Origin: Terriglobia bacterium
GTDB lineage: Bacteria; Acidobacteriota; Terriglobia; JAJPHL01; JAPKYU01
Assembly: GCA_965206645.1 (NCBI GenBank)
Contig: CBDBKE010000003.1
Coordinates: 704,001-768,000 of the forward strand
Length of the DNA stretch: 64,000 nt
Direction: 5' to 3'
Shown: in pieces, positions 12,851-18,341 of the stretch
Numbering within the stretch: position 1 is the stretch's first letter
How the letters are laid out: the number at the start of each line of letters is the position of its first letter
The notes under the pieces: model-generated
What the model was told of the DNA's origin: nothing
Databases searched by the model: none
The model's input: only the letters and a program-made list of their open reading frames with translations
Made by a program: the position numbers and the translations under genes

Positions 12851-12945
12851 TGGCGGAAGGTTATGGGAATCGAACCCATCGCTGCTCGTGAGAAACAGCC
12901 ACCGGCTTTGAAGGCCGGGCGAGTCACCAGACCCGATTACCTTCC
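12851..12945 (-). tRNA. selC: tRNA-Sec (anticodon UCA)
   Basis: Reverse complement GGAAGGTAATCGGGTCTGGTGACTCGCCCGGCCTTCAAAGCCGGTGGCTGTTTCTCACGAGCAGCGATGGGTTCGATTCCCATAACCTTCCGCCA: 95 nt, extended acceptor stem, anticodon arm CCGGC-CTTCAAA-GCCGG, long variable arm, TTCGA T-loop, encoded CCA. Confidence 0.96.
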
Positions 12946-12989: not shown

Positions 12990-15464
12990 TCAACGAGAGG
13001 CAGTTCGTTCCAGAGCCCGCTCGGTGTACCGATACACCAGGTGGTTGGTGCATACTTCGTAGTAGCGCCGCTGGGTATACTCCTTCAAGCTGAAGGAGTG
13101 GGCATCCACAAAGGGAATCTGCGCTTCGCGCACCACCAGCCGCTGGAACACTTCGTTGGGCAAGGGGAAGGCACCACAGTGCAGCGTCACCTTTTCCGGC
13201 TGCCAGAGCAGGGGCATCTCCAGCTCGACCGGCTGGAGCGAAATCTCCTCTTGCAGTTTGTCAAACGCCTCCTCGCTCAGGCAAATCCCGGTGTTGTAGC
13301 GGACCAGGAACTCTTCCATGGCGCCTGCGGCGGCCTCTTCGGTGATGGTCTGGAACACGAACGCCCGGAAGAGCGACTGCTTGCTATCCAGCGCGCGGCG
13401 GGCCAGCTTGCTGCACCCGCTGAGCCGGTCGGCCAGGTTGATGGCCGAGGAGATCATGATCCGGGTCTCGCCGTCCAGCAGGTACATGGGCGTCGAGTTC
13501 TGCCAGCAGATTCCTATGCCAATCTCCAGCCGCGGCAAGTCCGCCTTCTCGGCCCTCGCATTGTACTGCTCGACCACGGCCATGATCTCCCGCGCCAAGC
13601 CACAGGCCCGGGCCACGGGATAACCGCCCAGCGCCGCACCTTATTTCTCGAACATTGCCAGAATCACCGCGTCGCCCTCAATGAACACCTTCTCACCGGC
13701 GTACTTGGGCAGCAGCTTGTTCAGCGGTTGGTAAAAGTTCAGACTGAAGTGGCTGGCCGGATTCAGGCCGCGGGCGAACAGGTCGGCGGTGAGCCGGGTG
13801 GAGTCACGCACGTCGGCTTTCAGAATCACGTGGCCTAGTATCTGTTCGCCCTGCGGCTTGTCCTCCGCCGGCAGCAGGAACTCGTACAGGGTGTTGTTGA
13901 TTCGGGAAAGCTGCCGGGTTTTTTCCTCAAATAGCAGGTTGACCCGCTCCATCAGGCCTTGCAGGGCCTGTAGTAGGCAATTGTCGCGGTGGTGCCGCAG
14001 GAAATCGCGAACGAAGCGAACGAGAAAGGCGCGGAGGTCACGTGGTTGATAGGTACGCACTCGCGCGGCGGCCTCTTCCAGGGTGCCTACGCTGGCCCGG
14101 GTCAGCTTGTAATGCGTGATCAGGTCGGTCACCTTCTTGAGTTCGGAAGGGTCCAGGAGGGCGCGTTTCAGTTGCTGCGGATGGATCGGCGGGCAGTAGT
14201 CCTGGTAGACGTTCGCCGTCTCGTAGGCGGCGGCGAAGCAGGGCAATAGCCCCAACTGCTGCGCTGCGTTATAAAATTCATCAACTAGCTGGCGCTGGAT
14301 CTCTAGCCTTTCCTTCAGGGCGCTCAGTTCTTTCCGCGGTGCCTTTCGCGCCTGCGCCTCAGCCAGCAGTTGCTCGGTGCGCACAGTACCGAGCAGCTGC
14401 TCCACATTTTCGGGGACGTTGAGCATCTCCGTCAGGTGCGCGTCGTAGGCTTCCGTCAACAGCCGCAGTTGTTCGGCCGACTGCCTCAGTTGTCTCTCCG
14501 GCTCCTCCAGGCGCCCCGCAAGATCGGGAGAGGCCGGAGGCGGGGTCTCGGGGCGGGGACCGAAGAGGCGTCCCAATCCCAATCCCAGCCCGCGCTCGGG
14601 AGGCTGGAGCTGGTCGCGCAGAGATGAGGTCCGGCTGGCCAATTGGTGATACTCCTGCTGACGGGTCTCCAGCTCGCGCGCCTCCGGTCCGACTGCGTCC
14701 ACCCCCTTGAGCATGGACTTCAGCCAGCGCTCCACGGATTCGTACAGGTCCGGGTCGCGGTGGAAGTTGCCCAACATGACGTACTTGGTTAGCTGAATGT
14801 AATCGTCACGGCCGGTTTCGGTGAACACCAACGGGTGAGAAAAGTAGGTGAACCAGGGACTGGCTTCGTCGCCGAAAAAGGATTCGCGCGTCTTGCGGAC
14901 CACACCAGCCTGCACTTCGTTAGCCAGCGACAGTAGTTCATTCGAAACGCGTCGGAAGACGTTCTTCTTGTCGGCCTGAAACTCGCTGAAGATTTCCTTC
15001 AGTTGGAAGGCGCGCAAGTTCCGATCGTGGCGCGGCCCTTCATACATCCGCAGCTTGTTCTTGCCCTCCATCTGGATGCGGCCGTACTGTTGCTGCACTT
15101 CCCAGCTCAGGTACTTGAAGAGGGCGACGTTTCCCAATAGGTCGATGTCGGGGTTGCGCGCCTCCTTGGCGTGACTGAGCGCACTGAGCAGTACCTCCTG
15201 CAACAGACGCTTGAATTCGTTGCGCTCCTGCGGCTTGGGCGGGCCCGGGTTCTGCTCCGCCAGCTCAGGCGCGCGGCTGTGCTTCATAAAGAGCTTGAGA
15301 ATGTAGCCCCTGGTGAAGCCGATGAAGCGGGAGCTCAGGTGGACGTCGTGGCGGACGTTGTCCACGCCCGGCACTAGCGATGGAAAGCGCAGGTCCGGCG
15401 CGGACCCGGCGAGGCGAACCGCCGCATACACGCGTTCCGGGCTGGAACGGGAGAACAGCGGCAT
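12990..15464 (-). pseudogene. Large protein with C-terminal class III nucleotide-cyclase-like domain, interrupted by an in-frame TAA at 13641-13643
   Basis: ORFs 13641-15464 and 12990-13616 share a frame (MFEK*GAALGGYPVARAC). Cyclase-like motifs KADVRDST and FIEGDAVI precede the stop; IGIGI and AINLADRL follow it. Confidence 0.75.
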
Positions 15465-16204: not shown

Positions 16205-16750
<546 letters not shown>

Positions 16751-16928
16751 ATGCCTACCTCCAGTTTCTTGCAATTTCGGGATTCGCACAGGATTCCGTC
16801 CATGCGTTCGTTCCTTGCACGACCCCCGAATTATGCACCTAAATCCTGGCTTCGTCCAGTTTCTGGTAGCGGACACTCCAGTGCGGCAAGCGTCCTGCAT
16901 GGGCGGTGCGAGTTTACGGCTTTCCATC

Positions 16929-16957
16929 TTGACACCACGAGGACCCGAAGCTAGGAT
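16929..16957 (+). promoter_or_regulatory. Near-consensus sigma70 promoter
   Basis: TTGACA (16929-34), 17 nt spacer, TAGGAT (16952-57). Confidence 0.7.
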
Positions 16958-16963
16958 GCCCCT

Positions 16964-17160
16964 ACACGAGAAAGGAGGTGGTCGATGTTGCAGGATTCAT
17001 TATGTAGGGCCCGTGAGGTGGTCGCGCCTTAAGGCGGAATTTGCCTCAGAGCCGTCGTGTTTTCTTTCTGCTTGCCTGTGGCTGTAAAATTCCGCCCCAG
17101 GTAGTCTCACGCGGCTACCGGCGCCGGGCAGAAGGGGTCGGCCCTTCGGCCCGGCGTTTT
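16964..17160 (+). ncRNA. Putative ~195-nt structured small RNA carrying a 15-codon ORF (16985-17032, MLQDSLCRAREVVAP)
   Basis: Lies between the promoter and the terminator. SD AAAGGAGGTG; stems 17033-42/17087-96, 17100-06/17113-19 and 17122-56. Confidence 0.55.
17122..17160 (+). terminator. Intrinsic terminator-like hairpin (may also terminate the convergent mla operon)
   Basis: CGCCGGGC-A-GAAGGG-GTCGG-CCCTTC-G-GCCCGGCG followed by TTTT. Confidence 0.65.
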
Positions 17161-17267
17161 GCTTCTATCAGGGTGCTGGAAAACTAGCGGCTGGGGCCGC
17201 CCAGAACCGCTTGCTGACGCGCGCAGTTCCTTAACTGTAACCACTTGCCAAGCCGCAACCCACTGAT

Positions 17268-18341
17268 CTAAAACAGCTTGAACTTGATGGTCAGATACTT
17301 TTTCGGGTCCTTCCGGAAGTCGGCGATCAGGCCGCGCATCTCCAGGCTGAAGGTATTAACGTTCTCATAAAAAGCCTGGTCATGAAGGAACCTGCCGAAG
17401 GAACCCTCACCGCGTTCCAGCCGGGCGGCGATCTTGTCAATACGGTCCATCGCGGAATTGGCTCGGTTGTAAAACGACTCGTCCTTCAACAGCCGGCCGA
17501 CCGTCCCACGCCCAGCGTTCACGTCAGTTACCACACGATTGGCCCGGGTCATCAACTGGTCGGCGTTTTCGTAGAGCCCGGGATCATAGATGAACCTGCC
17601 CAAGGAACCCTTGCCCTCGTGCACTTCGTCAAGCACTCCGTCCACTTTCGTCACGCTGCTTCGGATCTCGTTGTACAGATCCTCGGTCATGAGCAGCTTG
17701 CCCAGGGTCCCCTTTCCCGCAGCAGCATTGGCAATTAGAAGGCGCGCGTCATTCACGGTCTGGTCCGCCTTCCGCCACAGCGCCTCGTCGTAGAGGAGCT
17801 TTCCCAGACTGCCTTCTCCGGACTCGACCTGCTCTATAACGCGGTCCACACGCCCCGCGATGCGGTTGAGTTTGGTCATTGCGTCGGCGCCCGTAGCTAG
17901 GACCTCACTGAGTTCCGGGGTTTCCTTGAGCTTGATCTCCCCGCCGGCCTGGATCAGCGGCTGCCCGGGACTACCCCGCGTAATATTGACGAAGCGTTGG
18001 CCCAGCAGCCCTTCGGCATCCAGCCTGGCCAGGGAGTCGGTGCGCAGTTCCTGCTGATACTTGCGCAGGATGCGCATGACCACCTCCACTGAGCGGTCGG
18101 TCTCGTGGCTGCCAGAGATGCGGATTTCCGCCACGTTGCCCACGTCAATGCCGGTCAGGCGCACCGGGTCGCCGGTCTTCAGCCCGGCGGCGTCCGCCAT
18201 GAAGACGCTGATGAGATATTTGCGCTCCAACAGGCCTTCGCCGGTCATCAGGAAGACCACGGTGGCAAAAATGATCAGGCTGGTCAGGACCAACAGGCCA
18301 ACGCGCAGTTGGGTCCACTGAAGTTGCTTGGGTTGCGGCAT
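17268..18341 (-). CDS. mlaD: MCE/MlaD family protein
   Basis: N-terminal TM, AAGLKTGDPVRLTGIDVGNV, GLLGQRFVNI, repeated G(T/S)LGKLL helical segments. Confidence 0.92.
   Translation of the reverse strand: MPQPKQLQWTQLRVGLLVLTSLIIFATVVFLMTGEGLLERKYLISVFMADAAGLKTGDPVRLTGIDVGNVAEIRISGSHETDRSVEVVMRILRKYQQELRTDSLARLDAEGLLGQRFVNITRGSPGQPLIQAGGEIKLKETPELSEVLATGADAMTKLNRIAGRVDRVIEQVESGEGSLGKLLYDEALWRKADQTVNDARLLIANAAAGKGTLGKLLMTEDLYNEIRSSVTKVDGVLDEVHEGKGSLGRFIYDPGLYENADQLMTRANRVVTDVNAGRGTVGRLLKDESFYNRANSAMDRIDKIAARLERGEGSFGRFLHDQAFYENVNTFSLEMRGLIADFRKDPKKYLTIKFKLF

Follow-up and report, generated by a model that had tools for sequence, protein, structure and literature searches.

A probable Ms_IGR-5-type RNA gene with a conserved short reading frame in a Terriglobia bacterium

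We analyzed a small element on the forward strand of a 64,000-nucleotide (nt) stretch of DNA from a Terriglobia bacterium (contig CBDBKE010000003.1, positions 704,001 to 768,000); this whole stretch is called the window below, and positions are counted from its first letter. We lean toward the view that the element, at 16964 to 17164, is a structured mini-mRNA, single-copy and independently transcribed, in which translation remodels the RNA. This view is carried by a short open reading frame (ORF) whose phase and end point are kept in the homologues and by a covarying fold that would give two Shine-Dalgarno (SD)-like sites different roles, with one displayed and the other paired to an internal anti-SD look-alike. 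We also found that the element very probably belongs to the Ms_IGR-5 family (Rfam RF02471), which would place a single-copy RNA gene of this type well outside Actinomycetota. A first-pass annotation of the sequence had pointed to a promoter, SD-like sites, an ORF, a palindrome, a 10-bp (base pair) stem, and the loop TTTCTTTCT, all of which are present as described. The features on which the text draws are as follows.

16929 to 16957, + strand: promoter, sigma-70-type (TTGACA 16929-16934, 17-nt spacer, TAGGAT 16952-16957)
16964 to 17164, + strand: predicted transcript, from the A of ACACGAG to past the terminator U-run (span of the RF02471 match)
16965 to 16968, + strand: 5' strand of helix P-1, CACG, pairing with CGUG 17012-17015 (covariation)
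16969 to 16983, + strand: site 1, extended SD AGAAAGGAGGUGGUC, complementary to the organism's own 16S 3' end
16980 to 17011, + strand: hairpin P0, GGUC 16980-16983 with GGCC 17008-17011, enclosing the start and first codons (by eye)
16985 to 17032, + strand: 15-codon ORF MLQDSLCRAREVVAP, with ATG at 16985 and TAA at 17030-17032
17012 to 17026, + strand: site 2, made up of CGUG (P-1 3' strand), A, and GGUGGUCGCG (P1 5' strand)
17028 to 17042, + strand: P2 5' strand CUUAAGGCGGAAUUU, containing the stop UAA 17030-17032 and pairing with 17087-17101
17043 to 17086, + strand: variable distal region including the UUUCUUUCU loop, different between lineages
17087 to 17101, + strand: P2 3' strand AAAUUCCGCCCCAGG
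17102 to 17109, + strand: bulge UAGUCUCA on the 3' side, family consensus (G/U)AAUCC
17110 to 17119, + strand: P1 3' strand CGCGGCUACC, anti-SD-like (RNAduplex, covariation, RNAalifold)
17120 to 17164, + strand: terminator, hairpin 17120-17158 followed by UUUUGCUUC/GUUUUGCUUC (predicted fold and comparison with homologues)

Phase and end point of the short ORF are conserved

Homologues were collected by a pattern scan for AAGGAGGTGGTC-N18-48-GTGAGGTG over one genome per prokaryotic species, which returned at least 120 stretches. The scan required both sites to be intact, so that their invariance among these sequences is by construction; the start codon, the frame, and the stop were not selected. 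Among the matches listed, 119 of 120 loci have a start codon 13 to 21 nt after AAGGAGG and in frame with the GAG-GUG of site 2. The same frame relation holds throughout the 142 distinct homologues, in which the offsets of the start and of site 2 combine in 27 different ways, and the stop follows GUG after exactly 3 codons in every one of them (142/142). Frame +1 is open in none and frame +2 in 13. These homologues are related, and the counts overstate their independence. The set of 142 omits one chance match (L091), two copies of the window (L001 and L143), and three loci that are not the element (L002, L144, and L172). ORF length ranges from 11 to 21 codons, and insertions or deletions inside it come in multiples of three only. 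The short ORF to which the first-pass annotation had drawn attention holds up in that its frame is kept throughout this set.

We also found that E-V is invariant in the peptide. The position preceding E is occupied by R, S, C, or G (CGU, AGU, UGU, or GGU), in step with the 5' nucleotide that pairs there, the actinobacterial R/W-T corresponds to the GGAC strand of P0, and the V-A-x codons correspond to the P1 strand. These correspondences suggest that the amino acids are mostly dictated by RNA pairing. From this comparison, we conclude that selection appears to act on the phase in which translation runs and on where it ends, and hardly on the peptide sequence, and we consider it likely that the ORF is translated.

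Covariation supports a fold in which the second SD-like site is paired

We evaluated a four-helix structure on a MAFFT alignment of 58 sequences (A2), in which P-1 joins the 5' CACN to N'GUG, P0 joins GUCC to GGAC, P1 joins site 2 to the 3' strand, and P2 joins the stop-codon strand to the strand preceding AAUCC. On A2, 81.8% of cells pair, compared to 29 to 40% when the 3' partners are slid, and the covariation score is 0.258, compared to 0.045 to 0.080 for the slid partners; 0 of 500 shuffles reach 0.258. The corresponding values are 83.7% versus 34 to 40% and 0.315 versus 0.048 to 0.074 in a 100-sequence alignment (A3) to our own covariance model (R1), an alignment that is fitted to the structure that it supports; loci L010 to L013, which R1 matches only with long inserts or low scores, were left out of it. 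All four Watson-Crick types occur at the fourth pair of P-1 in the 100 sequences (GC in 51, CG in 15, AU in 11, UA in 7, GU in 2, and other in 8), and the CAC:GUG pairs and the first three P1 pairs hardly vary. P1 is 89 to 92% paired (91.6% on A2), with both sides altered in 7 of its 10 pairs and compensatory pairs such as GGUGGCUGUC/GACAGCCACC, GGUGACCACC/GGUGGUCACC, and GGUGGCUACG/CGUAGCCACC.

Direct comparison of the two P1 strands gave the same picture. By RNAduplex, the GGUGG... part of site 2 is complementary over 8 to 10 bp to the strand before the terminator in the homologues, and in the window GGUGGUCGCG forms a 10-bp duplex of -19.2 kcal/mol with CGCGGCUACC. RNAalifold, run unaided on nine acidobacterial sequences, predicted P1, P2, and the terminator. 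The minimum free energy (MFE) z-score of the element is -2.86, and 3 of 200 shuffles fold equally well.

In the fold that covariation supports, site 2 would be the P-1 3' strand, an A, and the P1 5' strand, and it would be buried at rest; the SD of site 1 would be single-stranded between P-1 and P0. The second copy, GAGGTGGTCG at 17015 to 17024, had been taken for an SD-like site placed before the stop codon, and covariation relocates it to the inside of P-1 and P1. The palindrome CGCCTTAAGGCG (17025 to 17036) lies over the stop codon, and the perfect 10-bp stem formed by GGCGGAATTT (17033 to 17042) and AAATTCCGCC (17087 to 17096) is the inner part of P2. For P0, we infer the register in the window. 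The conserved single-stranded parts of the family in A2 are the SD and the AAUYC bulge, and the AAUYC block is nearly invariant there. The distal region at 17043 to 17086 depends on the lineage in both length and sequence and is missing from a minimal form (L018).

Several other pairings were considered. The TTTCTTTCT loop and its hairpin, which had been described as a feature of the element, are conserved within the genus only, and an 8-bp pairing seen by eye in the window between the UUUCUUUCU loop and the SD was rejected as a family mechanism because the loop is genus-specific. A pairing of CGUGAG (17012 to 17017) with CUCACG (17106 to 17111), present in the MFE fold of the window, is by eye not conserved in other lineages and was dropped as a family feature. 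Candidate pseudoknots, found by eye between the AAUYC bulge and AUUC/GAUUC in the ORF and between the GUCC of the actinobacterial terminator loop and the GGAC of P0, were too noisy to claim. At actinobacterial loci (e.g., L023, L024, and L027), a conserved GUCC(A) occupies the inner loop of the terminator hairpin. It repeats the tetramer of the P0 5' strand and could therefore vie with it for the GGAC strand within the ORF, as a possible pseudoknot or alternative pairing.

Site 1 is complementary to the 16S 3' end of the same genome

The first SD-like site, AAAGGAGGTGGTC at 16971 to 16983, had been credited with 13 nt of pairing to the canonical 16S 3' end, and the organism's own rRNA permits slightly more. 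The 16S gene of the same genome ends in ...GGCUGGAUCACCUCCUUUC. Provided that the mature rRNA extends that far in the 3' direction, AGAAAGGAGGUGGUC could form as many as 15 pairs with it, one of them G-U. Apart from the copy in the element, the 4.4-Mb genome contains the 13-mer AAAGGAGGTGRTC only antisense to the 16S 3' end and at the beginning of a mobile-element-like gene, three occurrences in all, and the reversed control pattern has 0 occurrences in that genome. Site 1 is invariant across phyla in A2. Its complementarity exceeds chance, and the whole architecture also recurs in other phyla.

The 13-mer at the mobile-element-like gene (L173; G000:C4:1167441-1167453, minus strand) precedes a second SD and a gene start by about 60 nt, and by eye this gene resembles an IS30-type transposase. 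The only other hit of R1 in the genome is the antisense of the 16S 3' end (L144/L172; G000:C2:257231-257269, plus strand), with 16 bits and an expectation value (E) of 0.29. The first 18 nt of the family come close to being the reverse complement of the 16S end, as AAAGGAGGTGGTCCAGCC in L118 does when compared to AAAGGAGGTGATCCAGCC, and CGGCTACC is common to the P1 3' strand of the window and the antisense of helix 45. This resemblance could be due to either convergence or common origin.

Site 1 can pair with the P1 3' strand in an alternative conformer

Site 1 can also form 6 bp with the P1 3' strand, in nearly all of 58 sequences. When each pairing was forced in turn, the pairing of site 2 was more stable in 68 of 90 sequences, with a median of -3.2 kcal/mol (L011 was left out of this folding). 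Folding of this kind makes two-state behavior plausible, particularly in the lineage of the window.

The element is a probable divergent member of the Ms_IGR-5 family

In an E-value scan of positions 16700 to 17400, RF02471 Ms_IGR-5 matched 16964 to 17164 over model positions 1 to 184 of 184, with 31.8 bits and an E of 1.9e-5. It was the sole family at an E of ≤10 in this region, where 6S, Acido-1, and Acido-Lenti-1, the families that had been proposed for comparison, gave no Rfam match at that level. The element had been described as one that could not be assigned to a known family, and this full-length match removes its orphan status. A scan of the window at Rfam gathering thresholds returned nothing at the locus; within the whole 4.4-Mb genome, the element is the best place for RF02471 (E of 2.8e-5).

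The model reached its gathering score in 8 of the 16 loci tested and failed in the other 8. It passed in five of five actinobacterial loci (66.8 to 185 bits), in the Zixibacteria locus L142 (55.9 bits), and in the acidobacterial loci L053 (51.6 bits) and L060 (49.6 bits), and the passing of L053, L060, and L142 forms a bridge between accepted members and the window. All 16 loci are also matched by R1. This model, which was made in this analysis and partly from the sequences that it then scores, gives the window 73 bits and matches all 100 loci searched at an E of ≤1e-5. The conserved blocks of the window also align in order with those of the actinobacterial members in A2. These comparisons place the window element, which is divergent, at the outer edge of a continuous family and not in a new family. 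Subthreshold RF02471 signals at an E of ≤1 were seen in Caulobacter and Thermus control genomes and were treated as noise, and the Corynebacterium glutamicum control genome gave no signal at an E of ≤1.

Rfam lists RF02471 as Gene; sRNA ("Actinobacteria sRNA"). PMC10454040 gives IGR-5 as ncMSMEG15794c of Mycobacterium smegmatis, and PMC8780764 lists an Ms_IGR-5 match for S. avermitilis. In the literature searched, we met no study on the function of Ms_IGR-5, IGR-5, or RF02471 and no name for a small RNA (sRNA) at the Rv0811c-Rv0813c locus, and text queries in PMC4633059, PMC9094748, and PMC7017587 yielded nothing relevant. The window element and Ms_IGR-5 have in common the 5' ACAC..GGAGGUGGUC, GUGAGGUGG, the AAUYC block, the anti-SD-like strand, and the terminator, as well as a short ORF ending in E-V-x-x-x-stop and a stand-alone gene with one copy per genome. 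In contrast, the window element comes from a different phylum, its ORF is longer (15 codons compared to 12), its distal insert is larger, and its P0 is in another register. The Rfam consensus structure, as far as it is readable, leaves the anti-SD-like strand unpaired and is without P-1 and P1.

Distribution and genomic context of the homologues

A DNA search of 60 relatives and the organism's own genome found matches in 19 of the 61, including the whole genus of the window. The relatives share a common plan, which in the 5' half consists of a TTGACA promoter, an ACAC start, GAAAGGAGGUGGUC(C), a short ORF, and GUGAGGUGG and in the 3' half of a stop codon embedded in GCUUAG, CCUUAA, or GCUUGA, a variable insert, CCGCCUCAGGnAAUC, a strand ending in ACCG, and a terminator. 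The pattern-scan matches listed include many Actinomycetota (Mycobacterium, Mycolicibacterium, Micromonospora, Rhodococcus, Nocardioides, Cellulomonas, and others) and many Acidobacteriota (Terriglobia, Blastocatellia, Bryobacterales, and Polarisedimenticolia). They also include metagenome-assembled genomes (MAGs), two from Rokubacteria and one each from Planctomycetota and Zixibacteria, together with a MAG labelled Heliobacteriaceae whose element is Blastocatellia-like. A match in Rhodobacteraceae (L091) was set aside as a chance match, with no ORF and an R1 score of 14 bits (E of 0.058).

R1 finds one real copy in the genome of the window. Among sampled genomes, it matches 22 of 151 from the phylum of the window, 74 of 151 from the Mycolicibacterium phylum (68 of 145 without six genomes flagged as unpublished), and 53 of 61 from the Rokubacteria-type phylum (51 of 59 without two flagged genomes), nearly always with one match per genome; these counts come from samples and were made with stricter Infernal filters at an E of ≤0.001, with weak matches lost, and are lower bounds.

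We clustered ORFs of at least 80 residues around 142 loci and found no neighbor gene shared across phyla; this clustering also produced many spurious high-GC frames. The largest clusters of downstream neighbors, both on the opposite strand, are a FABP-like gene (25 loci) and a NUDIX gene (15 loci); the cluster names (ABC ATPase, FABP-like, YgfZ-like, and NUDIX) were read from representative sequences and not from Pfam. At four Bryobacterales-type loci (L040, L047, L059, and L121), the ribosomal protein L31 gene (rpmE) starts 210 to 304 nt after site 1 on the same strand. In this lineage, the position of rpmE suggests that the RNA may serve as, or read through into, an rpmE leader. The same four loci have divergent 3' halves and R1 scores of 24 to 32 bits.

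Transcript boundaries and expression

The TTGACA-17-TAGGAT promoter scores 10 of 12 in a consensus scan, which found 2 promoter-like sites in 16400 to 17700 compared to 0.6 expected. In the homologues, a TTGACA box and a TAnnnT -10 box precede ACAC with the same spacing as in the window, and from this spacing and the conserved ACAC we infer that transcription starts at the A of ACACGAG. The R1 match in the window covers 16964 to 17120. At the 3' end, the predicted fold of the window contains a strong hairpin at 17120 to 17158, and equivalent terminator hairpins directly follow the P1 3' strand in the homologues. A second hairpin and a terminator had been proposed here; the hairpin and the U-run after it are present in the fold, and a strict terminator scan called no terminator here. 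The assignment of the terminator relies on the predicted fold and on comparison with homologues. The next downstream gene (17268 to 18341) is on the minus strand and matches MlaD, and this convergent arrangement leaves no downstream gene on the plus strand, as the first-pass annotation had also stated. Its description of the locus as a self-contained small transcript likewise agrees with the promoter and 3' hairpin in the sequence, and together these features support a transcript of about 200 nt with its own promoter and terminator.

Contigs in four metatranscriptome runs of one study lie over the element, at 16973 to 17223 and, for a variant with 10 differences, at 16985 to 17156. Positions 16820 to 16963 were left uncovered by the RNA-library contigs in all four runs, and this gap was not used as evidence for the start site. 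For family members in other organisms, PMC4974804 reports that homologues of Ms_IGR-5 in M. abscessus and M. smegmatis carry ribosome-protected reads, and PMC8079986 describes the S. lividans copy of the family as validated by RNA sequencing.

A candidate mini-mRNA remodeled by translation and the rival readings

In the reading toward which we lean, a 30S subunit would be captured by the long displayed SD of 12 to 15 nt, and extension of the SD-anti-SD duplex into GGUC would melt P0 and free the start codon. The ribosome would then translate the 15 codons, opening P-1, P1, and P2 in turn, and terminate at a fixed point inside P2. With the ribosome at the stop, the 3' strands and the AAUYC bulge would be unpaired and site 2 would lie at an SD-like spacing behind the last codons, and the RNA would refold after ribosome release. 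Selection would act on translation itself, with its frame and its stop fixed, and the peptide would mainly be a by-product. Translation would thereby toggle the RNA between a compact and an opened state, and pairing of site 1 instead of site 2 with the 3' strand would give an SD-masked alternative state. Candidate outputs of such toggling are RNA stability, ribosome availability, or a target in trans. A link of the element to ribosomes is reasonable, and ribosome stalling or sequestering by it is possible.

A number of points weigh against this reading. In forced-pair folding of the window itself, site 1 pairing is favored by 8.3 kcal/mol (-57.3 compared to -49.0 kcal/mol), as it is in the MFE fold, and the displayed-SD fold in the window draws on comparative evidence and not on energy. 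P0 is the weakest helix; it is 77 to 84% paired in the actinobacterial register, its register differs between phyla, and its two middle pairs are unpaired in 28 to 31 of 100 sequences. The fitting of the 100-sequence alignment, the relatedness of the 142 homologues, and the construction of the pattern scan, given above with their results, belong here as well. Since nearly all of the conserved residues are explained by paired nucleotides, they offer no argument for coding, and only the frame does. The RF02471 score of 31.8 bits falls below the gathering score of 45. Two further RNA-library contigs (1,088 and 756 nt) run from 17002 into the neighboring gene, and the RNA-library contigs may stem from contaminating DNA; the two contigs bridge the 3' two-thirds of the element and the end of the convergent mlaD-type gene, and if they are RNA, transcription of mla may extend in the antisense direction into the element by way of a bidirectional terminator common to both.

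Other readings share parts of this evidence. 6S RNA, which is stable and structured, imitates the normal substrate of a core machine and comes off when a short product is synthesized. By an analogy of function only, with the ribosome and not RNA polymerase as the target, the element could be a ribosome-parking decoy, in which the long SD-anti-SD duplex would hold a 30S subunit or 70S ribosome at the start, site 2, once unzipped, would hold it at the stop, and synthesis of the short peptide would release it. The up to 15 nt of complementarity to the organism's own 16S end, the invariance of site 1 across phyla, the strong promoter, the single copy and wide spread, and the conservation of GUGAGGUG beyond pairing needs are all in keeping with a decoy, as is the fixed position of site 2 3 codons before the stop, which would set GAGGUG at an initiation-like spacing from the last sense codon. 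However, site 2 is paired in the resting fold, and we regard a decoy as quite unlikely. If it were true, the RNA would be an abundant, stable mRNA mimic with a 13- to 15-bp SD-anti-SD duplex, a "6S RNA for ribosomes," and in no fewer than three large soil phyla would tie the pool of free ribosomes to the capacity for translation. tmRNA is another structured RNA with a very short reading frame and a stop in a helix; the element differs from it in having its own SD and start codon and in being without a tRNA-like domain, and ARAGORN found 0 genes in 16700 to 17400, where there was also no Rfam tmRNA match. A further reading is a purely noncoding base-pairing sRNA, whose ORF would be incidental and untranslated and whose SD-like sites would act as seeds or structural strands. 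The Rfam listing as Gene; sRNA, the helices that explain most conserved codons, and the high degree of structure (z-score of -2.86) would all be expected of such an sRNA, but it is unlikely in view of the in-frame start in 142 of 142 homologues at 27 spacings, the indels in threes, the invariant stop position, and the ribosome-protected reads that PMC4974804 reports for homologues.

The conserved frame and stop and the invariant E-V could instead mark a functional micropeptide gene of 11 to 21 residues ending in x-E-V-x-x-x, with a structured 3' part that only stabilizes the mRNA, and acidic or Ser/Cys-rich N-terminal parts do recur within lineages. We find this very unlikely, because the residue before E changes exactly with the paired 5' nucleotide, R/W-T is the P0 strand, V-A-x is the P1 strand, the N-terminal part differs between lineages in length and composition, and no partner gene is conserved nearby. 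Of the micropeptide idea in the first-pass annotation, the conserved frame survives, and the conservation of the peptide is mostly at the RNA level. The layout of a short ORF, alternative pairings, and a terminator also recalls a leader-peptide attenuator or cis-leader whose downstream gene has been lost or is only sometimes present, and the same-strand rpmE at the four Bryobacterales-type loci would suit it. Such a leader has almost no claim on us for the element at large: the next gene in the window is convergent, the largest downstream neighbor clusters in other lineages are on the opposite strand, no neighbor is shared across phyla, and the terminator stem does not visibly compete with another helix, the alternative pairings seen being those of site 1 or site 2 with the 3' strand. 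A similar small transcript, from among the leader-peptide attenuator RNAs that act in trans as well, is rnTrpL/peTrpL of Sinorhizobium (PMC6614838), in which a short ORF is translated, helices alternate, transcription ends at an intrinsic terminator, and RNA and peptide can both matter; the element differs in having no downstream biosynthetic operon and no regulatory codon run.

The mini-mRNA reading thus remains the one that we prefer. In our searches of the literature, we met none of the following aspects, which may be known elsewhere: the spread beyond Actinomycetota, the strict mini-ORF, P-1 and P1, and the role of site 2 as a paired strand. An RNA so conserved, and so closely fitted to contact with ribosomes, is probably involved in some general feature of translational control in soil bacteria, and its carriers include non-pathogenic laboratory species.

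Neighboring genes in the window

The element is flanked by a divergent AhpC/TSA-type gene and a convergent MlaD/ABC/MlaE operon. The divergent gene, a peroxiredoxin at 16205 to 16750 on the minus strand, has an in-frame TGA (16526 to 16528) at the expected catalytic Cys (..AFTGG-U-TKEL..). Read with TGA as U, it matches PF00578 across the TGA site (E of 1.4e-39), and a tRNA-Sec is found at 12855 to 12945 on the minus strand, 3.6 kb from this gene; it is probably a selenoprotein gene. A 607-residue ORF at 13641 to 15464, also on the minus strand, has no Pfam match at an E of ≤0.001.

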